This document shows positions 5,584-25,090 of a stretch of 62,786 nt of DNA, piece after piece (positions within the stretch are counted from its first letter, which is position 1; each line of letters opens with the position of its first letter). Position numbers and translations under genes: made by a program. This stretch comes from a virus. Location: the IMG/VR virus record IMGVR_UViG_3300036975_000025, positions 1 to 62,786 of that record, one strand, 5' to 3'. Under the pieces are notes generated by a model. It worked only from the letters and a program-made list of their open reading frames with translations. It did no database searches and was not told the DNA's origin.

Positions 5584-5708
5584 CGAATGAGTTTAGGGAA
5601 CATGCGCGGCCACAGGTACACGACCAATAACACCAGGGCCGTGCAGGAGAGCCCCAGGAATGCCCACAGAAGAATTTCATGTAGGTATATGGGGAGAAGG
5701 GCAAGCAT
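5562..5708 (-). CDS. Small hydrophobic protein, holin-like (48 aa, below track threshold)
   Basis: My translation is MLALLPIYLHEILLWAFLGLSCTALVLLVVYLWPRMFPKLIRWIWPKT. TAATG overlap with the upstream gene; overlaps the start of the hydrolase gene. Confidence 0.4.
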   Translation of the reverse strand: MLALLPIYLHEILLWAFLGLSCTALVLLVVYLWPRMFPKLIRWIWPKT

Positions 5709-6598
5709 TAGTATTGAATCACCTCGTCAAGCAGAGCCTTTTCAATCTCAGGATCTACAGGGTAGAGGTAGCCGGTAGCCCATCCAATGCTCTTTGCCTG
5801 CGCGCCATTCATCCAGTATTCCTGATCCCTCAATTTCTGGGCAAACGCTTCCTTGGTCATCCCCACCCTTTTTGCAAGCCATGAATTAATCGTGTCCTGG
5901 AAATGATTGAGAAGTTTCGTTTTTTTCTTGCTGTCCGTTGGGGTGGAAATCTCAAAGAATGTGAACGTAGCCAATTCGTGCATCATCAGTTCAACCGTGG
6001 GGGACATAAGCCTTTTATCAGCCGCACAAAAGATGATGAATGCAGCGCTCGCAGCAATAGACCGCACCTGAGTCGTTACGTCAAAGCCCATGGCCTTATA
6101 CTGCTCAATAACTGTAACCACTTTCCATCCACTAAAAATGGACCCGCCAGGTGATTCTATGTCGATAATGATTCGTCGAATGCCGTGCCGAGCAAGATAC
6201 CGGAGTGCATCTTCTAGAAGCACCGGGGTCGCTTCACGAATGCCAATGTTTAAAGTAAAGAATCCGTACTTACCCTGATCGTCTTCATAAACCTTTAGGA
6301 GAGCAGGATAGTCAAATTGGTCGTGGGGATCGGTTTCCTTAATCTTCTTGAAGTCACGGCCTCGACAATGGCACCACAGGCATTTGTCCTGATCGGTCAT
6401 TGTGGTGAACGGACAACGGGCAACGCCTTCGTCTTCAGATTCCTCATCCCCCGAAGAGGCCGAAACTTCTGCCCGTGCTTCCGGTTCCGCCCACACCATG
6501 CTAGGTAAAATGGACAATGACACAATTAGGGCAAGGATAATCGCCAAGATTGGCACACTCCACAAAAGGCTAATGTTGCTATACTTTCGGTATTTCAT
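5708..6598 (-). CDS. Membrane-anchored/secreted S49 (SppA) / ClpP-fold serine peptidase
   Basis: IIIDIESPGGSIFSG...SIAASAAFIIFCAADKR...MMHE are ClpP/S49-type blocks. N-terminus MKYRKYSNISLLWSVPILAIILALIVSLSILPSMVWA/EPE. ATGA-coupled start at 6598 with a GGAAGGGAGAG RBS. Confidence 0.75.
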   Translation of the reverse strand: MKYRKYSNISLLWSVPILAIILALIVSLSILPSMVWAEPEARAEVSASSGDEESEDEGVARCPFTTMTDQDKCLWCHCRGRDFKKIKETDPHDQFDYPALLKVYEDDQGKYGFFTLNIGIREATPVLLEDALRYLARHGIRRIIIDIESPGGSIFSGWKVVTVIEQYKAMGFDVTTQVRSIAASAAFIIFCAADKRLMSPTVELMMHELATFTFFEISTPTDSKKKTKLLNHFQDTINSWLAKRVGMTKEAFAQKLRDQEYWMNGAQAKSIGWATGYLYPVDPEIEKALLDEVIQY

Positions 6599-6771
6599 GG
6601 CTTCTCTCCCTTCCATTCGGCCAATACGGTAATCTCATGGGTAGCTTTTTCCAGAATGCGGATGGCTTGAGTGATGCGGATCATGTCAGGGTCGTGGGAG
6701 CGAGCAATTTTTTCTAGGCAGACAGAAGCGTTGCGACAAGTGTGTTGGATTTCGCTATCTAGGCTCTTCAT
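6595..6771 (-). CDS. Hypothetical small protein (58 aa)
   Basis: Internal ATG (MKSLDSEIQH...) chosen over the track start at 6819. The stop is coupled (ATGA) to the peptidase gene. Confidence 0.35.
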   Translation of the reverse strand: MKSLDSEIQHTCRNASVCLEKIARSHDPDMIRITQAIRILEKATHEITVLAEWKGEKP

Positions 6772-6925
6772 GGATGCCACCCCTTGTCCCGGCAGTGGTC
6801 GTCGGGGCGTTTTCATCAATCAACATCCCAGAAACTGTATGCGTATAAACGTATTGAATGACATCGTATCTATCAATAATATAGAACAGCGCAGCAAATA
6901 GTATAATAACAATTAGTGTTCTCAT
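6755..6925 (-). CDS. Small membrane protein (56 aa, below track threshold)
   Basis: My translation is MRTLIVIILFAALFYIIDRYDVIQYV...; ATGA overlap with the upstream stop. Confidence 0.4.
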   Translation of the reverse strand: MRTLIVIILFAALFYIIDRYDVIQYVYTHTVSGMLIDENAPTTTAGTRGGIHEEPR

Positions 6926-7260
6926 GATACCATGTTCAGAACAATTTTTCTAAGTTCTCTAATATCTTGCCTTAATTGGTCGTACTGGTCTTTTATTTGG
7001 CTCTCCATTCCTTCCTGCTTTGTTTCAATTGTTGATATCCGACCGTTTAACTCTCTTTTCTGGATATAATGCTCATCACAAAATCGCCGTACCGCTGCTT
7101 CATCCATTACACTTGTCATAGGACAATCCATGGGAGGAGGTGAAGACGTCTTTTTACCTAAGTTTTCAAAAAGAATGTGAGGATTTTGCAAAATATAGAA
7201 CAAAAAAACGACAACCATAAGAGCAGTGGTAATCTTAACACCAGCAAATAAGTCGAACAT
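6922..7260 (-). CDS. Membrane-anchored coiled-coil protein (112 aa)
   Basis: Start at MFDLFAGVKITTALMVVVFLFYIL (AGGAG RBS); C-terminal heptad-like segment. Confidence 0.5.
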   Translation of the reverse strand: MFDLFAGVKITTALMVVVFLFYILQNPHILFENLGKKTSSPPPMDCPMTSVMDEAAVRRFCDEHYIQKRELNGRISTIETKQEGMESQIKDQYDQLRQDIRELRKIVLNMVS

Positions 7261-7475
7261 GTCAACTCCTATTAAGAAAGTGTGCGCCCCCGCCAACCGC
7301 CGCACGGAACGTGACGGGAAGTCTTGGCCTCACAGTCCTTATTTCCGGGCTTGGCGTGATCCGTGCCGTTTCGACCCCGTGCATACCCTGCGAAGAACGC
7401 ATGCTTTTCCTTCACGACGCACAAAAATGAGGGTGCCCCTGTCCTACCTTGGGTCCGTTGACCCTACTATTTACG

Positions 7476-8312
7476 CTACCTGCGGCTCCGTGTCCTTCGA
7501 TTGACGCGGGAACGGGGACCGGCGCCCTTCGATGCTTTCTTGATTGTCACGGTGTAGCCGGAGGCATCATCGAAATCGAATCCAGCATCAATGGATTTCC
7601 ACGCAACATAAATCCCTTTTGCTCCACACGTATCAACGCTACTTGCGACAAAATTCTTAAAATTAATAATTTCACCATTTACATTAATGTCAGTATAAAT
7701 TCCTAAACGAGCGCCAACCACATCAGCCAATGCCGTTTGATAAGAGGCTCTATCTATATAGGCAGCAGTTGTCGCCGCAAGATCCTTAGTAGTAGTGCCA
7801 AACGCGCTACCCGCACCTCCAGACCAGTAAAAACCCGCGTTGTCACCCCCTGAAGTCCCTTGCTCTATTGAAAGATAACTTACATACGGAACGTGTTTTT
7901 CAACATTCCCCGTCTTAAATGACCCTTGTGAGGACGCGGTTCTGGTTAGTTCATAATGGTCTACATTAAAAGCCAACGTTGCATCAAAGGAGGTCCAGTC
8001 TCCTGTATTATCCGCAGAGCAATCGTCTTGTGCGATTATCGTTTCGTTTGTCGTTCCACTCCCCTTTACTCCACCATCTCCTTTGGCTATATTGCCACTG
8101 GCATCTATGACTTCAATAATGTAATCCCCGGTTGTCCCGCTTCCATAGTCCGTTCCTACGTCCCGACCGTCCGGGAACCAAATAAAGCCGTTCGTAGAGG
8201 TATAATTAGCAACCAAACAACAGGTCGAAAAGGAGGTTGTACCCGATGCTGCCCAAGCAAGGGAAGGGGAAAGAAGGGCGAGTATAAAGACAATTATGTA
8301 GAGGCGCTTCAT
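7476..8312 (-). CDS. Secreted late protein (278 aa), Gly/Thr/Ser-rich
   Basis: Signal peptide MKRLYIIVFILALLSPSLAWA/ASG. The start overlaps the end of the open frame 8309..8530. Confidence 0.6.
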   Translation of the reverse strand: MKRLYIIVFILALLSPSLAWAASGTTSFSTCCLVANYTSTNGFIWFPDGRDVGTDYGSGTTGDYIIEVIDASGNIAKGDGGVKGSGTTNETIIAQDDCSADNTGDWTSFDATLAFNVDHYELTRTASSQGSFKTGNVEKHVPYVSYLSIEQGTSGGDNAGFYWSGGAGSAFGTTTKDLAATTAAYIDRASYQTALADVVGARLGIYTDINVNGEIINFKNFVASSVDTCGAKGIYVAWKSIDAGFDFDDASGYTVTIKKASKGAGPRSRVNRRTRSRR

Positions 8313-8530
8313 TTTGGCACCTCCTTTTTGATATCTGTGGGTATACCACCTGCACCATTAGGCTTTTCGATGTACTTATCTTGAATGGTGTCGTAAATCA
8401 TCAAATTATTCCATAGAATCACTTGTGGATTGCCATTCTTATAATGTACTTCTTCATACTCTTCCAATGGCCGAAAAAATGCTTCTATGACTGCGTTCTC
8501 TACGGGTATCCATACCCGCTCAGGACCGTT
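8309..8530 (-). other. In-frame open segment downstream of UGA 8531..8533 (candidate recoded extension, 73 codons plus stop)
   Basis: Same frame as 8531..8752. No ATG/GTG with an RBS. Ends in an ATGA overlap with the next gene. Translation NGPERVWIPVENAVIEAFF...DIKKEVPK looks protein-like. Confidence 0.45.
8503..8518 (-). promoter_or_regulatory. Hairpin CGGGUA-UGGA-UACCCG 12 nt downstream of the in-frame UGA (SECIS-like / readthrough-stimulating candidate)
   Basis: Perfect 6-bp stem with a 4-nt G-containing loop, read directly from the sequence. Confidence 0.4.
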
Positions 8531-8752
8531 TCATGTGGGACACCGGACCTTCCCGTTTTTGAATTCCGTTACCAAAGGAGGGCCGGGGGCAGGGGTGCAA
8601 CCACCTTCTGCGTTCAACCGAAACACCATGCCGTTGTACTTCTGCACACAGAAAGTCGTATCGTTGACCGTGATTTTCCCGAATACTCCAGCCGCCCCCA
8701 CCCACGCAGGCAAGATCAGTAGGCAGAGGGCTGTCAGAAATACTCGTTTCAT
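8531..8752 (-). CDS. Small secreted protein (73 aa to the UGA) ending ...RCPT-UGA
   Basis: AGGAGA RBS; signal peptide MKRVFLTALCLLILPAWVGA; the last residues C-P-T precede the TGA. Confidence 0.65.
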   Translation of the reverse strand: MKRVFLTALCLLILPAWVGAAGVFGKITVNDTTFCVQKYNGMVFRLNAEGGCTPAPGPPLVTEFKNGKVRCPT

Positions 8753-8775
8753 GGTGTCTCCTGTAATGACGATGG

Positions 8776-9642
8776 TTACGGGACTTGGGTCGGATCAGCC
8801 GTCCACTGCTTGATCGACAAACCACCTGCACTGTTCCCGGCAGGGTCATACCAAAACCGCTCCCATTCGTAGGGTTTCAGAATAATTATTTTCCCATCCT
8901 CCAGAATGCTGGTCGTGGTGGAAGGCGTGGTACTTCCGTCTGTCGTGTAATTGATATCATCCCCGATGGTCTGAACTTCAATCGCCCTGGCCCCGGCTGC
9001 AACCTCTATAGCCGTGGTGCCGCTCCAAAATTGAGTTACCCCTGTTGTGGCAAAGGCAGAATAGTCTTGGTCTATCAGGAGAGGGGAAGACTCGTAGAAG
9101 TCGCCTTCTTTCCCTGGAAAAATGCGAAACTCCGCATGATCGAAAACGGTTGTACCCGAGGCCGTCACGAACCCGAACCGTACATAGGTATTGGCCGGCA
9201 ACCGGGCCCACTTCGGCCCTGCGGTATTGTTGGTCGTGGCCGTAACCGTCTCATCCTTGTAGAAATAGAACCTCTCGGCATAGGTCCAGGTATCCGGATC
9301 AAGGGAGCACTCTGCGTAGAAATCAAAGTCCTTTGAGATCGTCCCGCCTAAACCTTGCTGGGCCTGAGAGGAATCGAGGTCCATCAACTGCACGCCGTAC
9401 CAGGGTCCGTACTCGTTGGCATTGAAATACTGTGTACCGTCAGCCCGGGTGATGTTGTCGTCGTTGGGGGCATCGAGGTACATGGTCGAGGCGCCGGAGG
9501 CATACGTGGTGTTGCCTGTATCGGTCAATCCTATGTAGGCCGTCATGTACGGGATCTTCCCGAACATCGCCAAGGGGTCGGCGTGCGCGGTTCCCATAAG
9601 GCCGAAGAGCAGAATCAAGGCAAAAACGATTGTCTTTTTCAT
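8776..9642 (-). CDS. Secreted late protein (288 aa)
   Basis: Start at MKKTIVFALILLFGLMGTAHA/DP, an internal Met of the track ORF; beta-rich composition. Confidence 0.6.
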   Translation of the reverse strand: MKKTIVFALILLFGLMGTAHADPLAMFGKIPYMTAYIGLTDTGNTTYASGASTMYLDAPNDDNITRADGTQYFNANEYGPWYGVQLMDLDSSQAQQGLGGTISKDFDFYAECSLDPDTWTYAERFYFYKDETVTATTNNTAGPKWARLPANTYVRFGFVTASGTTVFDHAEFRIFPGKEGDFYESSPLLIDQDYSAFATTGVTQFWSGTTAIEVAAGARAIEVQTIGDDINYTTDGSTTPSTTTSILEDGKIIILKPYEWERFWYDPAGNSAGGLSIKQWTADPTQVP

Positions 9643-9716: not shown

Positions 9717-12700
9717 CTATCGCCACTCCTCGTATATTCTGGTCGCCTCCCCTCTCATCTTCTTGGGGATCTGAGAGAAAGCCGGCCTTAGCCTGTTTCG
9801 AATGGAACTCTTGAGGTCGATCACCTTCCAATACTCCTTGTTCTTGAGGGCCTTACTGTTCCACTCCCGCACCGATTGAAGAACCTTGTCCATCGTCTTC
9901 CGGTCATTCTTTCGAAAGGCGTTCGCGTACTCATCGGCTAAGTGTCGCTTCTTCTCTTGGACACTCTCTTCTGCCTTCCTGACGGCTTGATACGCTGCGT
10001 AGGATTTGCTAGAAGAGATCGGCTGGAATCCAAGGGCTTTCCCCACCATCTCGGGCGCCGTAATCTTCCGAGCTCCCACTTTCCCCGGGTAGTTGATATT
10101 TCTCCCCGAGCGCGTCCTTTGCCCCTCGGTGTAAAGGGTATGCCCTCTCATGGCGTTTCGGACCATCAACGGGGTCACAGGGGACTCAGAGAAAGCCCTG
10201 CCGATCTGCCCACTCTTCAGGCTTTGGATCATGTTCACCGTGTCTTCCATGGCCGAATAGGGCACCCCTAGAAGGTCCTTCCACGATTTCGGCACCTCGA
10301 TCGACAAGGAACCCGTTAAATCCACCCCTGCGGAGGCCCCGGGCAGCCCATATACAATCATGTCCTTCAGCCAGTTGTGCGGCATCAGTTCCCTGGCCTT
10401 GGTCATGGCATCCTCGTCATCGTCCCCCAGCGCCCACAGGAGCGCATTCGAGAAGGCATTGAAGAAGGGGATACCACTTAACCCCGCAATGATGATCAGG
10501 TTGCGAAGAGAGTAGGCCACAGCCCTTTTCCCTGCAGGACCCTGGTTGGAAACCAGATGGGCTACCATGGAAAGGTAGTTGTGCGTGAAAGACCGGAACG
10601 TATAGGCGGATCGGGCGTACTTCTGGAAATCTCCCCCTCGGGCGAATTCAGGAAGATTGGCCTTGCCATAGAGGAAGTGACTGTCTAAAATAATTTGTTT
10701 GGCAAAATCAATGGACCGGTTGTAGTTTCCCTTCGTCCCACCCTGGAAGTCCACCCCATCGTTATAGGCGATCCTGAAGGCTGCAAGCCCCGTAGAAGTC
10801 CGATTGTACTTCTCTGCCAGGCCCATAAAAATACCGGATTTGTCCACGAACTTCTTGAGGTACTTCCCCCAACCCCTTCGAGGAAGATCCCCCTTGAGTT
10901 CCCTGAGGTACTGGTCGATGGTCGCACCCTCTTCGTGCATGTCTCTGAGGGCGGTTTGCTCGATCTCCTTGAGGTGCTTGTAGTGGATCTGTTTTCCCGT
11001 CCACGCTTCCTTTGAGGTTAATGCCCGTCGCGTGTCGGCCATGGCCTTTGCCAGTTTTCTATGAGATCCCTTCGTGTACTGGCTGAGAATAGGGGCCGCA
11101 GCCACCACATTCTGTGTCAGGTTCACAATGGCGCTCTTGGGAACGAACCCGAGGTATTTGACGAAGAACAACCCTCGAATGGAGTCCACCACGCGGTCCG
11201 TCTTGTCCTGGTTCCTCAGAACGTCCCGGACGTACTTCGAGGCGTAGCGGTACTCATTGGGATTCTCTCGAGCGTCGATCTGGTTCAGGATATGCGTATG
11301 CGCCCGAGCCCTCTGAATCTTCGTCTTGAAACCGGCATACCCACTCAGGTAGTCGAAGAGCGTGCCGAAAATATCTTCCGTCTCGAACCCGGCAATGAAC
11401 TGGTCGGATCTTCCAATAGCGTGCTGGCCGAATCCTCGAGACTTCACCACATTGGAAATGGCTTCGGAGAGGGCCTTTTCAATATCCCCCCGGATATTCT
11501 TTGTGGCCTGGGTTCTTGCCTCATCCTCGGTCAACTTGGGGTCGGACTTTCGAATGCGTTCCATCTCCCGCTGGACTTGATCGGCCTTGATATGCTGGCC
11601 GGCCATCCCCGCGATTTGCTGCATGGCATTGATGTCCAGACTGAAAAAGACCTCATCCGGGAGCTGGGTCAACTCTCGGGCACGGCCTACTTCATAATCC
11701 CCCATCTTCCCCGTTAGCCGTCCTTCCCTCACGGCTTTCCTCAGCCATGCCTCAGCCCTTCCCTTGGCCTTATTCTCTTTTGATTTTCCGATCTCCTTAT
11801 ACTTCCAGAAGTGCTCACGGTAGACCACGCTGAAAGGATCGTCCTTCTTCGTGATCTTGATGTAGGCATCCCCGTCTCTCTTGTGGGGGAAGTAGTTGTG
11901 GATCTTTCCCACCTCGGATCGGTACTGCTCGATCAGGTCAGGGTCGAGCTTTTCCACCCGCATGGTCTGGTCAAGGTCGATCAGCTTTCTATCCAGCACC
12001 TCACGGATGTTCAGAAAGGCGTTGATAACCTGCTCGCTCACCCCCTGCTTTTTGAGGAACTGACGGGCTTCCTGGTAGTGTTCGGGCTGAAGGGTTAAGT
12101 CCTCTTCCCCCTTGGAAGGAAACTTGATGGCATCCGTGGGCACGTCCTTCTTGGGGAAACGCTTTCCTTCCCACTTCCAGATGGTGTCGTTGAGTTCCTT
12201 GGACGCCTTCTTATCCTTGGGGATGGAGTCCTGGATCTCCCCTAGTCCTGTCTCGTAATCGTCGTGGAGCTCCCGGCTTCTCGTCTCTCCCGCGTCGATC
12301 TCCACGGCTACATGCTGGCCGATAGTCGGGTATTTCTTGCCTACCCAATAGGGAAGTTGAAACGTCTTTCTCCACGCCCTCATGTCATTGGACCGCTCTA
12401 CGCCTGTACCGAACCGTTCGAGAAGGTTTGAAAGGCTGGAGGCTTCACTGAGAGGTTGCCTGACGGAGCCTATGGGGGAAGAGGCATCGTGAATTTTCTG
12501 AAGGCTCTCTATCCCCTCCACGCCCAAAGACGCCCTAACTGCTTCTGCCGCAGGGCCTTCCTTGGAGGTGAGGGAAGCCATGATGTCAGCCATGGGAGCG
12601 CTGGCCGCAACCTTTCCCAACGCCTCCCTGCTCGCCCCACTCACAATGGACTGAAGGTCCGCATCGGTCAGTCTCAGGGTTACGCCCATGTTGCGGAGAA

Positions 12701-15700
12701 TCTCCCGGATCTTCGCGTACAGCCTCTTCAGAAGGTTCGGGTCTTTCCCGCTCTCCGCGATTCGGGCAAGGTACTCTTCCGCGACAACCCTTTGCTGTCT
12801 ACGGGTGTTTTCCCATTTGTCCCCGAAGTATTCATCTATCAGGTCTTGCAGTCCCTCTTCACCCTTAGTCGCGTATACCTCTTCGAGAAACCCATTCAGC
12901 CGGGAGCCAAAGACTTTCCTGAGACTGTAATGCCCACGGGCTTCGTGAAAGAACGTCACCACCACGTCTTCTGGCCGGGTGAAGGCTTTGGAGAAAATCA
13001 GGACTTCGGGGTGCTTCTTGTCAATCAGCGCACCCTTTAAAGACCCCTCTCGCCATTGGGGAGCGGATTTGTCCAATTGGGCTTGCTGGGCGAGAGTCAG
13101 GGAACCCGCATCCTCTACCACCCTTACTGTCAGGTCAATGCCACGGGACCGGAGTCGCTTCGTGAAGGGGGTAATGGCTTGACGGGCTTGACGACGGGTG
13201 AGGGGGGTGCCTCTGGCTTTCTTGCCTTTCTTTGCAAGCAGTTCTCCCGTCTCCCCCTTCGGCCACTCCTTTACGTTCTCCCCCTCAACAATTTTCTTCT
13301 TTCCCCGGACAACGACCTCGACCTTCCCCTTATTTTTGCCTCGTTTGATTTCGCGGGATTCGGTGAAAGGATACACTTTGTTGTCAATCCAAACCTTGCC
13401 GGAACGGGGCTTGGCTTCTTTTTCGGTCTTCTCCTGTGCCTGTAGGTCGGGGTAGTCTTTGAGGACGGAGGCAGGGACGGATTTGCCTTCCCTAAGAGCA
13501 GACACAACTTCACGCCGATGTGAAATGAGTTCCTGCCCTTTGGGTGTCAAGGCAAAAGCCGTGACCCTCATTGTATTGTCGGTATCAGCCAAGCCAAGGT
13601 CACGCAGTTCTCGCATTTCGCCTTGAGACGGCCTCTTCCGTTTTCCGCGCAAAACATCCGACATCCGTTCTGCAATTTCAACGATGCGCGGTTCATACTC
13701 TTGGGACTCACGCCATTCTTCAGCCGTCATCTCCCACGGTTCCTTCCCCGTGGTTCCCTCTGCTTCAGACTCAACCGTCAAGGATTCCTTGTCAGTTGCC
13801 TCCTTTGGCGCTTTCTCCTCAAACGCCTTCGCCTGCTTCTCCCTCTCCGCTCTCACCTCTTCGAGATCGGTCGTCTCGGTTGCAAATGTCCCGCCGTTCT
13901 CCATGTCCGTCCAGGTATGCGCTCCGTCTTCCCATTGCCCTTCGTGTCGGACGCCCTCGGTCTGAAGCGTTTCAACGGCACTCTTTTCACCCTCTTCCAG
14001 TTTGACTTCCCCGGCCCTCAGAAACCGTGCCGCCTTCCCGGTAATCGCCATCTTGAGCATGTCCATAGGCGTGCGCTTGCCCATCTGGGTGCGCTCATCA
14101 GTCGGTGTAGGCGGTCCCACATACCCGCCCACCAGTTCCGTGGCTTTGTCGAGAAACGTCTGAGGGGTTTCCCCGGCCCGAATCAGCCGTTGCTCTTCCG
14201 GGGTAACGGTAACCCCTTCAATGACTACGGGCGTACCAGGTAATTCCTCCATCTCCTGAATTTTCATGAGGGCATCGGCCATCTTCTGCGCGGCCTTCCA
14301 GGGGGACCGGGCGATCTCCTCTTCCCGTGCCTCCATGCCCCGGCGCTGCTTCTCGATAGCTGCCACCTTTTCAGGGACGCCCTCTTCATGATAGACGGGT
14401 TTCTGCCCGGTAATGCGCTCGGTCCTCTCTCTCCCCTTGGTCTGGAGTTCCTGCCTCAGAGCCTCGTAATCCTCTTCATCCTTTGCCAGTTCCTTTTCAA
14501 ACTCGGCTTCCAGATCCGTTCGGCGTTGCTGGGCCTGCTTCCTTGCCCTCTGTTTGTCGAGCATCACGGAGACGGATTCAATGGGCTCCGCTTCGGGAGC
14601 AGCCGGTAAATCAGAGAGAGACGAGACAACCGGCTTCGGTTCCGTCGCCTCTTCAACGGGTTCTGCGGGTTGCTTGTTCATGGCGTCGATAATGAGCTTA
14701 TTCACGTCATCATCGAGCCCTAATTCCTCGATCCTCGGATCTTCCTTGAGTTCAAGGAGTTCATCGAGGCCGAATGTCCTTCCCTGTTCGTCTGTACCTG
14801 TGTCGTAGGCTCTCTGAATCCCGCTGAGGATTTGCTGTTTGGCTTGGTCGGCGCTTGTACCTTTAGGCGTTGCAATTCCACTAACCATTCCACCACCAAG
14901 ACCACCAACGGCTCCTGCCGCACCGCTTTCGATTAGACGATCAAGGTTCTCCTGCGTAAATTTTTCAAAAGTGGGATCATTGACAGCAATGTTCGCCATA
15001 GAAAGGAGTTCTTGCGTAGATTCCTGTAATGCCTCCCCAGGGGCTTGCTTTGCCGCCTCTTTAACCATCCGAGCGACAAGAGAAACGCTTTTAGGTGTCC
15101 CGTTTCCTGCTAAAATCCTATCAAGGGTTTCTCTAAACGCCTTCCCAGCCTTGCCTCCAAGGGTTTTATCAATCAACCGAGCATTACCACCTGCAAGTTC
15201 TACAAAAGCGGCAAGAGTGCCTGTAGCCAGGGCAGACCAAGGATTATCAATTCCCCGCTCCATCGCTTCGCCCCAATTCCCACCTGCTTCAATAGGGGCT
15301 ACCGCACTCACAATGCCAGCCTTGGCTCCTGCCTGCTTCATGGCTTGCTTGGCAATGGCGCTCTTCCCAATTCTTTCTATCTGTTCTCGCGCAGCCCTCT
15401 CAGCCGCTTCGCGGGTCATGCCTTTCTTAACAAAACGACCCACCGCCTCTTTAATCATTTTTCGAATGGCACGCTTGCCGAAGAAACCTGCAACGGCCCC
15501 TCCTGCCGTACCAGGCCCAGGCGCAGCAGACCCTAATGTTGCCCCTAAAGCCGCACCCACAGCGGCTTCACCCATAGACGGGACAAGTTCCCCAGCCGTT
15601 TCACCAGCCCATCCTAATGCGCTTGTTAGCCCTTTGATTTCCTTAAATTCTGTTTCTTTCGGATACTGCGCCGCTTCCTCAATGTTCCTCTGGTATCCCT

Positions 15701-17353: not shown

Positions 17354-17365
17354 GGTTTTTCTCCC

Positions 17366-17989
17366 TTATTGATACCTGCTCTGGTAGTACCGCCGAAGGG
17401 CCTCATCATACTTTTGGGCGGCACTCTGCGTCCGGAATCCACCTGCCCTCATCGTCGGCCTTCTAACGGGTACGGAGGAACCACCGCTATCCCCGAACCC
17501 GTAAGAACTCACATCCCCGGGCTGTGTCCCCTCTTTTCCGTATGTATATTGCCCCGCCTGATTTCGGGCATAAGGCTCCCCGCTGAATCCCATCGGCTCC
17601 CAAAAGCTTGTTACCCTCTCTTCCGGGGTTCCCGCTCCATATTCGATGCCGTACCTGGTTTTCTGCCAGTCCTGATAATCCGCAAGACGGTTTTCCTGTT
17701 GCTGAGCGAGCTCGAACCGGCGCTCCCTTTCCTTGACCAACTCATCTAACTGTTCTTGAAGGCGAGCCGATGTGGTATCGAACTCGGCCTGCCGCTGCCC
17801 GAACTCCTTGCCGAACTTCTCCTTCTGGAAGCCGAATTGCTGTTTTTGCAGGTCTAAGGCGTCTTTGTATTTCCGGGCTGCGAGATTCTGTTGACCAATC
17901 GCCTGAAAAGCGCCTTGCACCGCAGGGGCGTAGTTCACCGTTCCCTTGGATGCCCTCAGAAGGTTTCGTGCATCGGTATAGGTTGCCAT
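17366..17989 (-). CDS. Late protein (207 aa), coiled-coil
   Basis: AAAGGAG RBS; Q/E/K-rich heptad-like middle. Confidence 0.55.
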   Translation of the reverse strand: MATYTDARNLLRASKGTVNYAPAVQGAFQAIGQQNLAARKYKDALDLQKQQFGFQKEKFGKEFGQRQAEFDTTSARLQEQLDELVKERERRFELAQQQENRLADYQDWQKTRYGIEYGAGTPEERVTSFWEPMGFSGEPYARNQAGQYTYGKEGTQPGDVSSYGFGDSGGSSVPVRRPTMRAGGFRTQSAAQKYDEALRRYYQSRYQ

Positions 17990-18028: not shown

Positions 18029-18430
18029 TCACCCACCAGAGGCGGGAGTCCTGTTCTTCTCAAAGGAACCCTGCCTTGACCAATTTTCCCGCCTAAGTGC
18101 TCGATAAAACTCTATCCTGCTCTTCAGTTCTTTGATTCGGGCATGGTGTCGCATCACAAGGTCAGTCGCTGGAGGAGATCCCGATTCCCAATATCGCTTC
18201 CGGTTCAACCGAGTAATCACCTGCTCTCGAATTCGTTTCGCTTCCGTTGCTGGCCGAATACGTTCGGGAGGAACGACCTTCCGGTCTTTTGTGGCATAAA
18301 AATAACCGTTGTCCAGCAAGATAAACGGCTGATCTGCACGAATACCCTCCCCAGATTTTGCAATATCTCCCTTCGCAAAACAAGTGGATGCAAAGAAAAT
18401 CACAACAATCATTAAAAAGCAGGGTTTCAT
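18029..18430 (-). CDS. Secreted protein (133 aa)
   Basis: TAATG-coupled start at MKPCFLMIVVIFFASTCFA/KGD, an internal Met of the track ORF. Confidence 0.55.
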   Translation of the reverse strand: MKPCFLMIVVIFFASTCFAKGDIAKSGEGIRADQPFILLDNGYFYATKDRKVVPPERIRPATEAKRIREQVITRLNRKRYWESGSPPATDLVMRHHARIKELKSRIEFYRALRRENWSRQGSFEKNRTPASGG

Positions 18431-19737
18431 TATGGACACCGCCATGTTGCGCGAACGATTCTTAGTGTCGTTGCCCCAAGATAATATCGCGGATAATACT
18501 CGCTTGCCGATACATAAAACCGTGAAGGAGTGTGGGCACTGCAACCATAAATGCAGTTCCCGTCTGCAACCAAGTTATAAGGATCATCATCTAATAGTTC
18601 ATCGGCGTATGTATCCGCACCGCAAAGATGTAAATCTCCCGTTAAAGCCCGATACACCAAGTCATATTTGTAAGGGCCATCCACAACTTGGCCACAAGTG
18701 TAGTTTCCTATTAGCCCTTCTTCACAGTTTCCCCACACACAGGTAAAATATTCATTATAGACATCGGACCTCGGATCGGTCCACAGGCCGTCGGCACTTA
18801 AAATGTAGGCGATAGATTGTTCCCCGCACCAATCGGTAACGGTTACCGTGGCGGTCCCACATGCAGTATTGTCAGCATAAAGATAGACTTTCTCAGACAG
18901 CTCCATCGTAATAGCCGTCGTAGGTCCTGTGTCGGAATAGAAATGAAACCCGGTCCCCGATACTGACCATGTAAAGGGTGGACACGGGAACACGTCCAAA
19001 TCTGCACCAACATACAACCAAATATTACCCGGATCTGATATAGTAAGTGATTCGGCATATATCTGAGGCTCTGCCCCAACACATTTACATCCACAATCAA
19101 TGATCCACGTCGAACAACATTCGTATGCCGGGTAGCTTTTAGCTCCTGCAACGGGAATCGCGTTATAGCAAAGGTCGAAAACCTGCCCATCGACTGCGTT
19201 ATCATCTATGCAAAAGACGATTTCATCATGGTTATAGTATTCGATGTGCCCCGCACCGCTAATATCTGTAACGCTGTTGATAATGTCACCGGAAGGAATC
19301 CCGACATCCCATGAATAACACTCCCCGCACTCGACAATGCCCCCACCTCCGGGGCACACCCTGAAGGCACCTCCGGGAATGTCCCACCAGCTTCCAGTAT
19401 GTGGGTCTTCCGGGTCCGGGTATTCCGCATAGTCCCAATCATCATCGTCCCACGGACTATCGTCAAAGGGCGGCCATACCGTGTTCTCCATGTCCAGGAG
19501 ATCATCAGGAAGGGGATCGCCAGGGAAAGCATTCAGGCCCGTCCATTTATCCTCTGACGCTTTTCTGGAAGGGTTTTCTACGCGGCTCCCTTCAATGTCC
19601 CGCTCCTGTACCTGATTTGCCCAATCGTGAAGATCGGACATCTCTTCTTCGGCGCCGGGGAGCTTCCATCCCACGGCACAGAGAAAAATCAGGATTATGG
19701 CAAGCCATTTAGTGACTATAGGATAAATAACTCTCAT
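18430..19737 (-). CDS. Membrane-anchored/secreted Cys-rich late protein (435 aa)
   Basis: N-terminal hydrophobic segment WLAIILIFLCAVGW; an acidic W/D-rich linker; about 20 cysteines including ECGEC and ECC..DCGCKC. Confidence 0.6.
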   Translation of the reverse strand: MRVIYPIVTKWLAIILIFLCAVGWKLPGAEEEMSDLHDWANQVQERDIEGSRVENPSRKASEDKWTGLNAFPGDPLPDDLLDMENTVWPPFDDSPWDDDDWDYAEYPDPEDPHTGSWWDIPGGAFRVCPGGGGIVECGECYSWDVGIPSGDIINSVTDISGAGHIEYYNHDEIVFCIDDNAVDGQVFDLCYNAIPVAGAKSYPAYECCSTWIIDCGCKCVGAEPQIYAESLTISDPGNIWLYVGADLDVFPCPPFTWSVSGTGFHFYSDTGPTTAITMELSEKVYLYADNTACGTATVTVTDWCGEQSIAYILSADGLWTDPRSDVYNEYFTCVWGNCEEGLIGNYTCGQVVDGPYKYDLVYRALTGDLHLCGADTYADELLDDDPYNLVADGNCIYGCSAHTPSRFYVSASEYYPRYYLGATTLRIVRATWRCP

Positions 19738-20182
19738 ACAAGACCTTTATGGCGTCCACCATATCAGGATAATTTGCATAAATGCTTTCCTTTACATCAC
19801 CGTCGTTGAATTGAATTGAGGCGTAAGTCTCCCAATCGCCAAACCTATCAACGTCTACATAAAAACGTATTTTTTCTCCAGAAGACTTCAGAAGCTTAAA
19901 TTCTGGAGTTGGCCTAACGTCCGCATTGAAAACACTCCACATAGCATAAGCAAGTTGCCAAGCCCCATCCTCAGACGTGGCCTTATTTGTCAATACACCA
20001 AAATTAAAATTATCATACATACAATGAAATGCGACGCTATGCGCAACATCATTTTCCCAATGCGAGAGTGTAATATTGCTAATGTTCGGAATTGATTCTA
20101 CTTTATCTCTTGGATCAGTAGCAAAAGCAATACCGTAAAACAGAAAAACAATACAAAAAACTATGAATGAAATTTTCTTCAT
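19709..20182 (-). CDS. Secreted protein (157 aa)
   Basis: AGGGAGA RBS; signal peptide MKKISFIVFCIVFLFYGIAFA/TDP. Confidence 0.6.
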   Translation of the reverse strand: MKKISFIVFCIVFLFYGIAFATDPRDKVESIPNISNITLSHWENDVAHSVAFHCMYDNFNFGVLTNKATSEDGAWQLAYAMWSVFNADVRPTPEFKLLKSSGEKIRFYVDVDRFGDWETYASIQFNDGDVKESIYANYPDMVDAIKVLYESYLSYSH

Positions 20183-20197: not shown

Positions 20198-22807
20198 TTA
20201 TGGCTGTGTATCGCGAATATCATAGAAGTCGCATGTGAACCCGTAGATTTCCATAAGAGCGCCTTCATCCCCGCTTTGGTGTCCTGCACGAAACCGAAGG
20301 GCGAAGGATTCCGCGGCCTCAGAGCAGTTGATCCTGCCCTTTGTATAGTCGTACCCGGATCGCACAAGACTAATCGTGTTCCCGCCTGTCGGTGTTGTCC
20401 CGCTCTCAGAGCCTTCAGGGTAGATAAGGGCTTCCATATCCCCCGCGGTGTCCGTCTTGGTCTTGGTTTTGATTGCCCGGAGCATAGTTGATCGGTTCAA
20501 GGCGTCTGGAGAATCCCCGAGGAAGAAATCGGGGGTTTTCACATAATGCTCGATCCGGGTTCCATAGTCGGTATCTCCGTTGTTGATTCTCCAAACATAT
20601 CCCGAAGTGTCTCCAAGGTAGGTCAAGCGCTGATTGTCATTCCCGACAAGGCTGGTCCCGCAACTCATATCGGATGAAAATTCCCACCGGTCCCACCATT
20701 CGTCGTTTACATACGAGTAGGGCAAAACGTAGTTACAGGTGGTCTGTGTCGTATTGCTGTTCTCGACGTTCAGCGGCACCCCGAAAAGGACCGTTCTTGT
20801 CCGGTAGTCCACTACGGCCCAGGACTTGTGCATGTACTCCGGTTCGATGTAAGGGGTAGACCCGGTGTCGAAGTAATCCGCAATCGGCTGAGAGATAGAG
20901 AGAGGCTTCCTGCCGTCCGTCATGTAGAAGCCATCAGGAGCCAAGAGAACGACGGCGTTGACAATGATGTTGCTCGAGAAGAGCTTGACCGCATCCTCAA
21001 TCGTCACCAAAGTATGCGGAGCGATAGCTCCTACGTTGGAAGAGAGAAGCAGTTCATCAAACGACCCGGGAGACTTCCCCTGCATGAGATACAGTCTGAG
21101 AGGGTCGTCCGTACTCACCACTACATAGGAAGAGATCCTTGCCGCCGCATTGACAATACCAGGACCGAAAATATCCCCCGTAGATCCCGCTTTTGGCCCG
21201 TTCCACACAAAGGGGTCGCCTTCTTGGGCGTAGTCCATCCCGTGCTTGAAGACATTTCCCGGCCATGCAAACACCCGCCCTGCGTGTTCGATGAACCCGT
21301 CATAGTGAACCATGGGAGGGACGGATTCAGGCTTTTGGGCCACGGCAATCTCATACAACCGGATCTCGTCTGCAAACGCCTCGCTCCACTCGATCTTGTA
21401 ATAATAGATGGGGGCAATATCGGTCCCGGACGTTCCCCCGAGTCGCATCTTATCCTCTCGGAAGGTGGACCCGTCCCACTGAACCACCCCGTTGTGGTGC
21501 ATGGAATAGGAGTCTTCAGAGGATGTGGAATCGTTCGTGGCCCCGGAAACCTCCGTCCATGTGCGCGTGTCCCCATTCCAATAGGAAATCTCGCTCACCG
21601 ACGAATCAGTACTGAGGTTCACATATCCAGGGTCGATGTAAAAATAGGCCGCGAAAATCGGATACGGGCTTCCAATGTAAAGGGTGTCCTGCCCGTTCAG
21701 GTCAATGTAATTGTAGGCCGTCCCATCCGTGACCTCTCCAGTATAGTCGATGAACCCCGTAGCTGAAGAGAGAAGGACAGAGGCCACATTCTCGTAGTAC
21801 CCCGACCACAGGTTCGTCATAGACTGGCAATCGGCGTTGACCCTCAGCCGCTTGATTTCAATGCCATCCGTGACATCGGCGGTCACACCCGCCTTGTACC
21901 AGAAGAGGTGTTCCTGATTTTCAGGAAGAAGGTACGGATCATCGTCGGAATCGAACGTCCACGTCACATGCCCTTCGGATTCATAAAGGGTCGTGACACC
22001 CGTGGAGTCTGCCGTTCCATCGTTCAACCCGGATACGTTGACCCATGATCCATCCTGGTAGGCTTGAACGTAGAACCCTGCCGCCTCGATATTCGTGGTA
22101 CTGGATAGTTCAATGTAGAACCCGTCCAGCTTGATCGGGGAACCGATATAGGCCGTTTCCCCCGAATCCTCAACGAACAGGACGTAGGTATCATCCCTAT
22201 CGTCCGATACGTCGTCCGTGCCGTCTACATAGGAGGAAACTCCCGCCTCATGGGAAACAAGGAAAAATCGAGGGTATTCTGTACCGCCTGACCAAATAAA
22301 AGGGGTTGTGCCAGAAGCCGCACCGACCCAATAGTCGTTGACGGCATCCGCGAACATTGCTTCGGTGCCAGATGTAAGGGTATAAATCGACGAGCCGAAA
22401 GAACCTTCGGCTGTACCGGGAGGGTCTTCGTCGGCAAGATAAAGGGCATCATAGCATTGAGCAATGAAGCTGTCGGTGTCGTGAATGGGGTTCGTATATT
22501 GAGAAAGGGCATCAATCGGGCCTGCCCCTTGATTGATAGCCGAACTGTTATGCTTGGTGGAACCGCTTCTTCCTTTCCATCCCAGGGAAACGGAAGGCGC
22601 AGGGCGTTGGACGTTGAACGCATCCCGTACCGCACCGGGCTCCTGTCCGACCCAGGGGATCGTTCGATCCAACTTACCGGAAAAGACATACGACTTGCGT
22701 TGCCAATTCTCTTGGGGAATGCCCTCGTTGGCTCCTTGGGCATACTGCGCTACCCCAAGAGCGCCGAGAAGAAGAAAGCAAACAAATATGATGCCTTTAC
22801 GGATCAT
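20198..22807 (-). CDS. Large late structural-type protein (869 aa) with N-terminal signal-like segment
   Basis: ATGA-coupled start MIRKGIIFVCFLLLGALGVAQYAQG. Size, beta-rich composition and position downstream of adaptor-like genes suggest a tail/nozzle or receptor-binding role. Confidence 0.6.
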   Translation of the reverse strand: MIRKGIIFVCFLLLGALGVAQYAQGANEGIPQENWQRKSYVFSGKLDRTIPWVGQEPGAVRDAFNVQRPAPSVSLGWKGRSGSTKHNSSAINQGAGPIDALSQYTNPIHDTDSFIAQCYDALYLADEDPPGTAEGSFGSSIYTLTSGTEAMFADAVNDYWVGAASGTTPFIWSGGTEYPRFFLVSHEAGVSSYVDGTDDVSDDRDDTYVLFVEDSGETAYIGSPIKLDGFYIELSSTTNIEAAGFYVQAYQDGSWVNVSGLNDGTADSTGVTTLYESEGHVTWTFDSDDDPYLLPENQEHLFWYKAGVTADVTDGIEIKRLRVNADCQSMTNLWSGYYENVASVLLSSATGFIDYTGEVTDGTAYNYIDLNGQDTLYIGSPYPIFAAYFYIDPGYVNLSTDSSVSEISYWNGDTRTWTEVSGATNDSTSSEDSYSMHHNGVVQWDGSTFREDKMRLGGTSGTDIAPIYYYKIEWSEAFADEIRLYEIAVAQKPESVPPMVHYDGFIEHAGRVFAWPGNVFKHGMDYAQEGDPFVWNGPKAGSTGDIFGPGIVNAAARISSYVVVSTDDPLRLYLMQGKSPGSFDELLLSSNVGAIAPHTLVTIEDAVKLFSSNIIVNAVVLLAPDGFYMTDGRKPLSISQPIADYFDTGSTPYIEPEYMHKSWAVVDYRTRTVLFGVPLNVENSNTTQTTCNYVLPYSYVNDEWWDRWEFSSDMSCGTSLVGNDNQRLTYLGDTSGYVWRINNGDTDYGTRIEHYVKTPDFFLGDSPDALNRSTMLRAIKTKTKTDTAGDMEALIYPEGSESGTTPTGGNTISLVRSGYDYTKGRINCSEAAESFALRFRAGHQSGDEGALMEIYGFTCDFYDIRDTQP

Positions 22808-23505
22808 TCAGTCTCTTTCCCGATATTCAGGTCTTTCCGATACCGCGCGATTTCCGCTTCGTACCGGCCCATGAAGTAGTCCCCGAACCCGAATTGACGG
22901 TCCCGATACCAGGCTTGGGCCGTGATGTAGTAGGTTAGGGCCTTGTCGTAGATCGCAGGAGTAGGAATAGCCTGGTCGATTGTGACCCCGGATGGCACCG
23001 CAACCAGGTAGGTGGTCACGCGATACCCGGAAACACTACTCGTCGGCGCCGGCCAGATGGCAATTTCCCCGGCAAACTCATCCCAATAGACCGGCTCCCC
23101 CACGTCCTCGGGCATTCCCAATCCTTTGCCGTCCTCCCCTCCGTCGAAAAGATCCCATTCCTCAAGAGGCTTGTTGTAGGTCGTACTCCCGCCGTTGTAG
23201 ATCGCCCCTTTAATGGTCATGAAGTGAGTAGAGAGGTCGTATTGGGTAACGCCGCTCAAGAGCGTGATGGTCTCTGTCGTCTGATAGCAGTGGGAGAGGG
23301 CAACGAGGTCCTTCATCCCATCGTTCAGGAATTGAAGGAGCTGTTGATCCGTGCACAGGTCGTTCCCGGCATCGTTCAGATACACTTGAGCATCGTCCAC
23401 CAGGGTTTGCGCGGTCACGCCCGAAGTCGTTTGGTCCCCGGCCCACACGGGAAATGCCGCCAGGACAAGGATCAGGCTGAAAAGAAGGTATTTACGCATA
23501 CGCAT
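22804..23505 (-). CDS. Adaptor/connector-like late protein with signal peptide (233 aa)
   Basis: Start MRMRKYLLFSLILVLAAFPVWA/GD. The body (LLQFLNDGMKDLV...PVYWDEFAGEIAIWPAP...ALTYYITAQAW) resembles head-tail adaptor families. Confidence 0.45.
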   Translation of the reverse strand: MRMRKYLLFSLILVLAAFPVWAGDQTTSGVTAQTLVDDAQVYLNDAGNDLCTDQQLLQFLNDGMKDLVALSHCYQTTETITLLSGVTQYDLSTHFMTIKGAIYNGGSTTYNKPLEEWDLFDGGEDGKGLGMPEDVGEPVYWDEFAGEIAIWPAPTSSVSGYRVTTYLVAVPSGVTIDQAIPTPAIYDKALTYYITAQAWYRDRQFGFGDYFMGRYEAEIARYRKDLNIGKETE

Positions 23506-24340
23506 CCCAATCCATCTCCTCGGGAATATGATCGGGTTCCGAGCTCTGCTTGTACGTCTGGTCAATGTCGTTCTTCACCAGCTTCCACATCTCTTGATGG
23601 AAGTTTTTCGAGGACACTAAATCGTCGTATTGCTTATGCTCAGGAGCCGGAATCTTGATGTGCATGAGAACGGGCAGGGAAACCAACCCCTCATGGTAGT
23701 TGTCGGGAACGTCCGTAATGGCAGAGGGGTTCTTCACATAATCCACAAGGATGTCGTTGGTGAAATTCGGATCATCCACCACGATGTAGCTTCCCCGCGG
23801 ATACCACTTGGTTTCGTCGTTATTGGTCGCTTCGGAGAGGTTGATTTTGGTGATGGGGTCCGGATCTCGGGGTTCTTCGTAGAACTTCCCGCCAGAAGTG
23901 TAGGTGTTCGTGAACGTAGATCCGTTCAGAGTGAAGTTGTCGTCATCGACCTCGGTGATCTTCCAGGAGCCGTTGGCTTCCGTACATCCCTCAACACTAT
24001 GGCCGAACACAATGTCATCGTCTACAAATCCATGATCGGTGATCGTGACTTGAATGCCCCCAGAACCGTCATCGGCAACGGCGGTCACGGTCCCGGCTGT
24101 ACCCCCTAGATCCCACACCCTCAGAATACTCAAGCAGTCTGAAGGCATGGAAAAGACGTGAGTCGTGGAGGCAATGGAGACACGGGTATTATAAAAGGAG
24201 GGGTCGCGGGTCTTGATTCGGTTCCCTAGCACTTTAACCGCGCGAAGACACAGCTTTTCGATCTCGCTGTCTGAGATGGAAACCGCCTTCGGTTCCCGTA
24301 GACCCCTCCTGATCGCAGTGGTAATTTGAGACTGTTCCAT
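23492..24340 (-). CDS. Head-tail adaptor-like protein (282 aa)
   Basis: GAAGGG RBS; no signal peptide; the N-terminal pattern AIRRGL...SDSEIEKLCLRAVKVLGNRI is typical of connector/adaptor proteins; lies downstream of the head genes. Confidence 0.4.
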   Translation of the reverse strand: MEQSQITTAIRRGLREPKAVSISDSEIEKLCLRAVKVLGNRIKTRDPSFYNTRVSIASTTHVFSMPSDCLSILRVWDLGGTAGTVTAVADDGSGGIQVTITDHGFVDDDIVFGHSVEGCTEANGSWKITEVDDDNFTLNGSTFTNTYTSGGKFYEEPRDPDPITKINLSEATNNDETKWYPRGSYIVVDDPNFTNDILVDYVKNPSAITDVPDNYHEGLVSLPVLMHIKIPAPEHKQYDDLVSSKNFHQEMWKLVKNDIDQTYKQSSEPDHIPEEMDWDAYA

Positions 24341-24352
24341 GTGGAACCCTTC

Positions 24353-25090
24353 TTAGTGGTTGATCTCGAAGATGCCCTGGATGCTTGCGCCGGAGTTGTA
24401 ACAAGCCTTCCCAACGTAAGCGTCCCCAAGCCGGTTGACATAGTAGACCGATCCACCGGTGGTCACATCCCAGCCAGTGGGTTCATAAATGCTTTGGACA
24501 GTCTGACCAGGGGTGTAGTAAGAGGTAGCTGCAGCGGCTCCGGCGAATTCGGCATACGGCACCACTTGAACGTAGGTCAGCCCTGAATGGCTGTCCGAAT
24601 AGTTTGTCGAGCCGCTCGGGTATCCCCACATAATTCCAAAGGTCTTCCCATCGTTGGCAGCCGTGACCTTGGGTGCGATGGCCGTAACCGCCGAAAACAC
24701 TGTACCCGCCTCGTTAAAAACCAAGTTGCTGAGGCTCATCACGTCCACGACATAGAAATACCCCCAATCCAGCCAGAACACGCTCTGACCGCTCGTTGCG
24801 GCCTGAGAGGTCAACGTGGAAAGGTCATCCTCGTCAATCACGACAACCGTCACGCCTGCAATCGGATTGAAGGTAGCCAGGTTATCCACATACGCCTTCA
24901 CGCTCTGCTGGCTTGCGACCCCATAGGCAGAATCACTCGCCATGTCGTCTTCATCGAAGTAATCCGCATACGGATAGCCCCCGAGATTCTTCCCGTTGAT
25001 CGAGATGGTGGTCTCTTCCCGAGCCATGGAAGGACCCTGCATGAAGGCAAAAACCAGGATAAGCGCAAGGAAGAAAGTAAACTTCCTCAT
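24353..25090 (-). CDS. Secreted late protein (245 aa)
   Basis: AAAGGAG RBS; signal peptide MRKFTFFLALILVFAFMQGPSMA/RE. Confidence 0.6.
   Translation of the reverse strand: MRKFTFFLALILVFAFMQGPSMAREETTISINGKNLGGYPYADYFDEDDMASDSAYGVASQQSVKAYVDNLATFNPIAGVTVVVIDEDDLSTLTSQAATSGQSVFWLDWGYFYVVDVMSLSNLVFNEAGTVFSAVTAIAPKVTAANDGKTFGIMWGYPSGSTNYSDSHSGLTYVQVVPYAEFAGAAAATSYYTPGQTVQSIYEPTGWDVTTGGSVYYVNRLGDAYVGKACYNSGASIQGIFEINH

Follow-up and report, generated by a model that had tools for sequence, protein, structure and literature searches.

Predicted signal peptides on an adaptor, the nozzle and neighboring late proteins in an uncultivated clade of short-tailed phages, and a possible periplasmic route of tail assembly

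To our knowledge, the assembly of tailed phages has been described as wholly cytoplasmic. The virus groups we know to export virion proteins are the filamentous and the membrane-containing phages, which have no terminase-portal-capsid module. Structural proteins of the Inoviridae and of membrane-containing phages use Sec/YidC, and their signal peptides are processed by the host signal peptidase. Late phage proteins with Sec-dependent export also include signal-anchor-release endolysins, spanins, and the Cor/Llp/Bor lipoproteins, none of which are virion components. Here, we analyze the virus record IMGVR_UViG_3300036975_000025 of IMG/VR (positions 1 to 62,786; this whole stretch of 62,786 nt is referred to as the window), the genome of a short-tailed phage in which homologues of two podophage tail proteins, an adaptor (22804-23505) and a nozzle or tail hub (20198-22807), start with predicted Sec-type signal peptides.

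The adaptor family PF24175 is common to the window and the podophages SU10 (a Kuravirus; gp11 adaptor, gp17 nozzle, gp19-24 ejection proteins), T7 (gp11/gp12) and P22 (gp4/gp10). SU10 and the window also share the β-propeller nozzle fold, as far as predicted for the latter, and the same order of adaptor, nozzle, and ejection proteins ending in a giant protein (PMC9509320). However, the structural proteins of SU10 lack signal peptides (its holin alone was flagged in our survey), whereas in the window the adaptor appears duplicated and one copy, the nozzle and their neighbors are tagged. The Inoviridae and membrane-containing phages, in contrast, are built at or within the membrane and lack an HK97-type capsid, a portal and a terminase, while the window possesses TerS, TerL, portal and major capsid protein genes. 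Filamentous phages and the host secretion machinery are the topic of PMC4823517. Candidates for lysis or conversion exports occur in the window, too (6755-7260), but its predicted exported set includes the adaptor and nozzle homologues.

The late operon occupies the minus strand from ~36,859 down to 5,017, and all late genes mentioned below are located on this strand. Signal peptides were called by a home-made heuristic, which required a net positive charge (n-region), then an uninterrupted run of 7 or more uncharged residues with a mean hydropathy of at least 1.9 (h-region), then a −3/−1 site, and by conservation in homologues; the late genes of SU10 served as control. Among the 17 late open reading frames (ORFs) between 5708 and 25090, 10 were signal-peptide-like according to this heuristic (24353-25090, 22804-23505, 20198-22807, 19709-20182, 18430-19737, 18029-18430, 8776-9642, 8531-8752, 7476-8312 and 5708-6598). 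Two more had an N-terminal transmembrane segment without a cleavage motif (6922-7260 and 6755-6925), and five had no hydrophobic N-terminus (23492-24340, 17366-17989, 15956-17353, 9717-15956 and 6595-6819). With the same heuristic, the holin was the only one of 20 SU10 late genes to be flagged (10/17 versus 1/20; Fisher p = 7e-4), and about 6 of 70 other ORFs in the window were flagged (p = 2e-5). The n-regions of the ten ORFs carried a net charge of +1 to +3 and their h-cores had a mean Kyte-Doolittle hydropathy of 2.5-3.5, in agreement with the layout of Sec signal peptides, in which 7-15 uncharged hydrophobic residues follow a positive n-region inside the first ~30 positions. The cleavage sites were read as SMA↓R, VWA↓G, QYA↓Q, AFA↓T, CFA↓K, AHA↓D, VGA↓A, AWA↓A and VWA↓E, and for three of these nine the heuristic chose an earlier site. 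A search for a twin-arginine (Tat) motif (S/T-R-R-x-F-L-K followed by an h-region) gave no match within the window. An earlier note, made from the letters of this DNA, had claimed that most late ORFs begin with Sec-type signal peptides when read at coupled or ribosome-binding-site (RBS)-supported starts. Our re-reading agrees with this: the ORFs it listed exist on the minus strand, and their starts follow a GGAG-type Shine-Dalgarno sequence by 5-10 nt or overlap or are coupled with the preceding stop codon. The note's count of at least ten also stands, but the ORFs are not consecutive, as five untagged ones are interspersed.

Conservation of the extensions was assessed for the adaptor and the nozzle. 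Close adaptor homologues (35-60% identity) retained the hydrophobic N-terminus followed by A↓GSQQTS in 7/7 cases. When 1.84 billion cluster representatives were searched with a profile, 147 adaptor clusters were retrieved at E < 1e-30, and a signal extension was present in 95 of the 120 full-length representatives (50%-identity clusters). In the alignment columns of these 95 peptides, position −1 was occupied by A (71), G (15) or S (6), adding up to 92/95 (97%), position −2 by an aromatic residue, and position −3 by A (31), V (28), S (10) or C (8), with A/V/S/C/L/I/T in 87/95. This is the classical pattern of signal peptidase I. The mean n-region charge of 109 adaptor homologues was +2.2 and the median h-core length was 14 residues. 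Nozzle homologues (38-77% identity) had a signal peptide in 13/15 cases, mostly with xxA↓Q sites. When the window was compared with L001 (L numbers denote related phage contigs and P numbers homologous protein records), conservation was lower in the peptide than in the mature part for each of the four orthologue pairs while the hydrophobicity of the peptide was kept, which is as expected for signal peptides; for the nozzle, the identities were 50% and 79%, respectively. These comparisons indicate that the N-termini are real and selected.

The same data bear on the possibility that translation actually begins beyond the hydrophobic segments, or that these segments arose by chance. The gene call of the Joint Genome Institute (JGI) places the nozzle start at codon 151 (P0008, 719 residues), and the adaptor ORF contains in-frame GTG codons at positions 30 and 36. 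However, the hydrophobic segment, charged n-region and AxA site are in frame across more than 100 clusters despite sequence divergence. The nozzle ORF has no in-frame start codon between codons 2 and 45, and homologues cover 96-100% of its full length, so that the JGI start, which omits the signal peptide and 125 mature residues kept in homologues, is not supported. The earlier note had itself raised downstream starts in homologues as an objection; the homologues retain the hydrophobic N-terminus, and we regard an artifact of this kind as very improbable.

The tagged adaptor (22804-23505, 233 residues; signal peptide MRMRKYLLFSLILVLAAFPVWA, cleavage predicted before GDQTTSG) matched the Pfam family SU10_adaptor (PF24175) with 71.8 bits (cut-off 27) over profile positions 2-181 of 194. 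Its adaptor domain begins at residue 31, right after the hydrophobic extension. The family profile also matches the PDB chain 8jov_2, which is present in 12 copies in its entry, from residue 5 of that chain; hence, the solved relative is without an N-terminal extension. A second candidate adaptor, 23492-24340 (282 residues), has no signal peptide and combines a helix bundle with an inserted FCCH-like β-barrel. Its N-terminal part alone matched PF24175, at 24.1 bits (cut-off 27; E = 5.7e-5), and PF16190 was matched as well. The AlphaFold2 model of this protein (predicted local distance difference test score, pLDDT, 90.5) gave its best template modeling (TM) scores with the SU10 adaptor chains 7z4b_DU and 7z47_A (TMt 0.43-0.44), whereas the lowest E-values stem from the inserted FCCH barrel. 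Judging from this model, 23492-24340 is probably a second SU10-type adaptor paralogue, and none of its 54 homologues has a signal peptide. In the following, we refer to it as adaptor 1 and to the tagged paralogue as adaptor 2. Adaptor 1 is our proposed head-side ring and a plausible partner of adaptor 2.

For the nozzle (20198-22807, 869 residues; signal peptide MIRKGIIFVCFLLLGALGVAQYA, cleavage predicted before QG), an AlphaFold2 model built on 16 homologues had a mean pLDDT of 74.8. Its 15 best Foldseek matches in the PDB were all nozzle or tail-hub chains, with a probability of 1.0 and E = 2e-14 to 9e-9, from cyanophage A4, SU10 gp17, Pa223, HRP29, PhiM1, P22 gp10, E1004, Sf6 and T7 entries (chains including 9k09_U, 7z4f_G, 9nwi_Y, 8es4_E, 8vbx_A, 8eap_D and 9jyz_P). 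The low TM-scores (0.25-0.37) are not surprising given the multi-domain nature of these proteins and the pLDDT of the model. The best BFVD matches include P22 gp10-like “DNA stabilisation” proteins. By sequence, the nozzle had no match among PDB sequences, Pfam, PHROG or GenBank phages; nozzle proteins are without mutual sequence similarity, as the SU10 study notes (PMC9509320). According to this model of moderate confidence, 20198-22807 has the podophage nozzle fold centered on a β-propeller. The three proteins thus bear out the earlier note, which had guessed an adaptor at 22804-23505 and a large tail-type protein at 20198-22807 and had suggested structure prediction for 23492-24340.

Both genes show mosaicism in the comparison with L001: the nozzles are 77% identical, the adjoining adaptors 2 only 33%, and the adaptor 2 of the window is nearer (about 39%) to those of L002, L005 and L006. 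Furthermore, some members of the adaptor family (in P0071, P0072, P0090 and P0108) are fusions that carry an additional N-terminal domain between signal peptide and adaptor domain. This additional domain starts, in three of the fusions, with T/AxYYV..G.D, which we read as a β-helix/pectate-lyase-type N-terminus. If this reading is right, the mature N-terminus of the adaptor would be surface-exposed and able to bear a depolymerase-like module.

The tagged genes stand in a conventional context. In the window, the adaptor is followed by the nozzle, small proteins, and three ejection-type proteins ending in a giant of 2079 residues, and the adaptor-nozzle-ejection order recurs in L001, L002, L006, L009, L010, L013 and L030. 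That the tagged genes occupy this canonical position argues against their being exapted, secreted paralogues outside the virion (a periplasmic decoy, or proteins for superinfection exclusion or lysis), with the tail made from other proteins. Such a role would fit the duplication of the adaptor gene with one copy lacking the peptide, a signal-less ORF of 789 residues that adjoins adaptor 1 in L006, and the distal ORFs 7476-9642, which showed no structural-protein homology in profile searches. However, the window holds no other nozzle-sized candidate: its ORFs of more than 400 residues are all accounted for, save one of 418 residues in the early region, and none of the ORFs lacking a signal peptide had a nozzle or tail-hub match in family and profile searches of the window. 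Moreover, relatives whose adaptor 2 and nozzle are signal-less possess the same single pair and no extra copy, and therefore this pair is most likely the tail. Overall, we consider a non-virion role of the tagged adaptor, nozzle and neighbors quite improbable. It is unlikely for the adaptor and nozzle in particular because the genome is without another nozzle candidate, whereas it may apply to 8776-9642, 8531-8752 and 7476-8312.

The signal-less relatives are informative in a further respect. Some adaptor homologues without the extension begin with M plus the predicted mature N-terminus (MGSQ.., MSSQQTSG..), and in the contigs inspected these starts are preceded by a stop codon or a non-hydrophobic frame. 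In genomes with a signal-less adaptor, the nozzle is also signal-less and begins a few residues before a conserved F-x-F-D-G-x-W-x-P motif. Across 18 genomes, both proteins were tagged in 12 (the window, L001, L002, L005, L006, L007, L009, L010, L018, L024, L025 and L029), neither in 6 (L011, L013/L014, L015, L030, L031 and L032), and none was discordant (p = 5e-5, with kinship ignored). A third, post-nozzle family follows the signal state in three genomes, as the protein of L025 has 25 additional N-terminal residues, a signal peptide, compared to those of L013 and L030. In L002, the ORF between adaptor and nozzle (11349-12140) has the canonical twin-arginine motif TRRSFLK. A small late protein of L006 (975-1256) carries the twin-arginine motif NRRIFLK.

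These patterns also bear on whether the hydrophobic N-termini are cleaved at all. They might be retained as membrane tethers during assembly, or as virion-buried helices that are released into the host envelope at infection. The tail-knob loops of phi29 insert into the host envelope at infection, podophage tails need a trans-envelope channel, several of the segments are of span length (5708-6598, 18430-19737 and P0012), and residues 2-25 of the nozzle form a free helix in the AlphaFold2 model. On the other hand, nine unrelated proteins, including some of only 73-157 residues, have a common n/h/c layout, the signal peptidase I rule holds at −1 in 97% and at −3 in about 92% of the 95 adaptor clusters, functional homologues lack the segment and start at the cleavage point, and one relative uses a Tat motif; the positive n-region would put the passenger domain in the periplasm anyway. 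We therefore regard retained helices as unlikely. The earlier note had named envelope-side assembly, membrane tethers and secreted non-virion proteins as three explanations without choosing among them. The −3/−1 rule, the starts at the cleavage site, the co-variation and the Tat motif favor envelope-side assembly.

The distribution of the tags follows the position of the proteins in the virion. In the window and seven relatives, terminase, portal, scaffold, capsid, adaptor 1 and ejection proteins are never tagged. In the window, the proteins without signal peptide comprise TerS (36290-36859), TerL (34705-36309), the portal (30458-32770), a 337-residue protein in scaffold position (27891-28904), the intron-split major capsid protein (25892-27865), a 243-residue protein (25132-25863), and three internal or ejection-type proteins of 207, 465 and 2079 residues in the position of the SU10 ejection proteins (9717-17989). 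The last three contain no cysteine in 2751 residues, and their orthologues in L001, L009 and L010 are without signal peptide and nearly or entirely cysteine-free (0-1 Cys in L009 and L010). This may reflect passage through the oxidizing periplasm during ejection. Cysteine is no general mark of export, as signal-less nozzles also have 11-13 Cys.

Our preferred interpretation, toward which the genomic evidence inclines us slightly, is that the part of the tail distal to the first adaptor ring leaves the cytoplasm, is processed and assembles in the periplasm, and is united with DNA-filled heads once the holin has opened the inner membrane. Our in silico results comprise the signal peptides and their conservation, the cleavage-site statistics, the protein identities and the all-or-none co-variation; from these we infer that the proteins are exported and cleaved, that the tail forms in the periplasm, and when and through which interface it joins the head. 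Together with seven or more further late proteins, adaptor 2 and the nozzle would be made with Sec signals, cross the inner membrane and be cut by the host signal peptidase I. They would then fold in the periplasm, where a protein with 20 mature Cys (18430-19737) could form disulfides, and would assemble there into a separate tail sub-complex. A phage protease of the ClpP/S49 type (5708-6598) would be exported to the periplasm, too. In the cytoplasm, procapsids would be assembled, filled with DNA, loaded with the cysteine-free ejection proteins and capped by adaptor 1. Contact between head and tail would thus have to wait until the holin breaches the inner membrane, or would occur in the lysate, and the two would join by stacking of the two paralogous adaptor rings, for which the adaptor duplication supplies a plausible interface. 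For the clade as a whole, we see an even chance that a large uncultivated group of phages has moved tail morphogenesis to the periplasm by Sec/Tat export of the adaptor-2 ring, nozzle and appendages, with particles becoming infectious only after holin action. In this clade-level interpretation, signal-less sister lineages demonstrate that the switch can be reversed and that it affects the tail module as a whole.

The proposed logic resembles that of well-known phages. Tails of lambda, T4 and SPP1 assemble independently and are then joined to heads, and P22 heads can be tailed in vitro with tailspike. As in these phages, a ring-sealed head would join a separately built tail spontaneously, even in lysates. 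However, the two halves of lambda, T4 and SPP1 are both cytoplasmic, whereas those of the phage in the window would remain on opposite sides of the inner membrane until the cell lyses. As the signal-less sister lineages show, the same tail can also be made in the cytoplasm, and therefore it probably is an independent sub-assembly.

Several points weigh against periplasmic assembly. All characterized tailed phages that we know of assemble their tails in the cytoplasm. The adaptor and nozzle of model podophages are added in sequence to the portal and are needed for DNA retention, and therefore a head capped by adaptor 1 alone is an assumption. Joining after holin action would leave little time and be subject to rapid dilution. 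Furthermore, either adaptor could make the portal contact, and a single mixed ring of both would break the model. The 18 compared genomes are related, so that the independent events are fewer than 18; a neighbor-joining tree suggested several signal switches, but this tree was noisy. Finally, host hints amount to labels of metagenome-assembled genomes (MAGs): the genome scan gave two MAG contigs labeled Deltaproteobacteria and Woesearchaeota, the latter probably mis-binned, and the names in the adaptor clusters added only “Deltaproteobacteria bacterium”. The probability not taken up by periplasmic assembly and the three alternatives discussed above belongs to mechanisms we have not thought of.

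Adaptors of the family PF24175, the nozzle fold of podophages and Sec signal peptides are already known individually, but their combination is not described in the literature searched, and full-text searches gave no relevant account of phage tail or structural proteins with signal peptides. We regard this as a novel form of the podophage tail, and there is a substantial chance that it reflects a new assembly route. If core tail parts are exported, head-tail joining can be uncoupled from the cytoplasm both spatially and temporally, oxidative folding and periplasmic chaperones become available to phage tails, and lysis timing becomes part of morphogenesis. In the annotation of viral proteins, a signal peptide would then no longer exclude a structural role. 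The paired lineages with and without signals provide a ready comparative system, and the conserved cleavage motif FA↓GSQQTS is a direct proteomic handle.

The late operon encodes further tagged proteins. A candidate fiber or appendage protein of 245 residues (24353-25090; signal peptide MRKFTFFLALILVFAFMQGPSMA, cleavage predicted before REE; RBS AAGGAG) had weak PHROG tail-fiber matches at residues 43-73, a short tail-fiber-like N-terminal motif, and the syntenic 440-residue ORF of L002 likewise has a signal peptide. Downstream of the nozzle, predicted exported proteins of 157 residues (19709-20182; ..YGIAFA↓TDP) and 133 residues (18029-18430; ..STCFA↓KGD; start coupled to the upstream stop) flank a cysteine-rich protein of 435 residues (18430-19737). 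The L001 orthologue of the first has a signal peptide of different sequence, and for 18029-18430 an N-terminal signal-peptide-like hydrophobic segment is retained in the L001 orthologue and in a syntenic 140-residue ORF of L010. The cysteine-rich protein had been described as having a transmembrane anchor and about 20 Cys. Of its 21 Cys, 20 lie C-terminal to the first hydrophobic segment, which can be read either as a signal peptide or as a signal anchor; Cys-rich ORFs occupy the equivalent position in L001 (orthologue by blastp) and in L009 and L010 (syntenic, 20-22 Cys). Beyond the ejection proteins lie three predicted exported proteins of 288 residues (8776-9642; ..MGTAHA↓DPL), 73 residues (8531-8752; ..PAWVGA↓AGV) and 278 residues (7476-8312; ..PSLAWA↓ASG), the last with the strongest RBS of the operon. 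The first had no family match in profile searches and is a candidate receptor-binding or appendage protein.

At the distal end of the operon, two small membrane proteins are probably lysis components, holin or spanin-like. The protein encoded at 6922-7260 has an N-terminal transmembrane segment, consistent with the anchor noticed earlier, followed by a heptad-like charged stretch read as a coiled coil, and that encoded at 6755-6925 has a single transmembrane segment. A search for an o-spanin partner with a lipobox gave nothing convincing. A C92/NlpC-P60-like amidase (5017-5583) without signal peptide and with a weak PF05708 match is a candidate endolysin. Between these genes, 5708-6598 encodes a serine protease of the ClpP/S49 superfamily (296 residues; ..PSMVWA↓EPE). 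The earlier note had called it a peptidase with a transmembrane anchor; the peptidase domain was recovered (PF00574, E = 4e-16), and with its long h-region the N-terminus may be either a signal peptide or an anchor. The catalytic domain is predicted to be on the periplasmic side. It is shared with prohead proteases and host SppA: the best PHROG matches were head-maturation proteases, and NCBIfam gave ClpP-related and weak SppA matches below its cut-offs. Unlike prohead proteases, this protein has an N-terminal signal or anchor, and its gene is located beside the lysis genes and not between the portal and capsid genes. One may speculate that an exported protease could process tail proteins or clear signal peptides. 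No relatives of the protease were found in the IMG/VR search.

The genome as a whole is that of a temperate tailed phage, as concluded from TerS, TerL, portal and an HK97-class major capsid gene, from Erf, DnaB and replication protein O, and from an integrase (59798-60973) that adjoins tRNA-Cys (60998-61074). It is an uncultivated, SU10/P22-type short-tailed member of the Caudoviricetes. The first 25 bases of the window are repeated 127 bases before its end (1-127 / 62660-62786), which fits a circular assembly overlap, and the window probably represents a complete circular genome of ~62.66 kb. Many relatives are contigs of 58-68 kb. With the tail region, the nozzle and the adaptor as queries, neither DNA nor protein comparison revealed a relative in 50,697 GenBank phage records. 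The sole match was Cellulosimicrobium phage DS1 with 19.8% identity, and therefore no cultured model exists within that GenBank phage collection.

The major capsid gene is split into an N-terminal ORF (27584-27865) and a region of C-terminal homology from ~26614 to 25898 that flank an HNH endonuclease ORF (26697-27566), and Rfam identified a complete group I intron at 26656-26907 (RF00028, 93.8 bits, E = 2.5e-24). A homologous HNH gene is present at the equivalent place in L002, and in L013/L014 the region from the scaffold gene to the adaptor-1 gene contains a LAGLIDADG ORF surrounded by fragmentary ORFs.

Outside the late operon, plus-strand ORFs at 2217-2663, 45777-46031, 48729-49172, 52550-53020 and 53989-54708 also have a signal-peptide- or anchor-like N-terminus (for example MKKTAMMIVLMIGLTAISANA, followed by KDRL). 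With these five ORFs, the phage encodes an unusually large set of predicted envelope-targeted proteins overall. A cassette resembling glycan or surface modification genes is located near the integrase and tRNA-Cys (53950-58701, plus strand) and is possibly a lysogenic-conversion module. It comprises a GDSL-type acylhydrolase with a hydrophobic N-terminus, a formyltransferase and a sulfotransferase as well as, judged by eye from their N-termini, a PIG-L/LmbE-like deacetylase and a P-loop kinase-like ORF.

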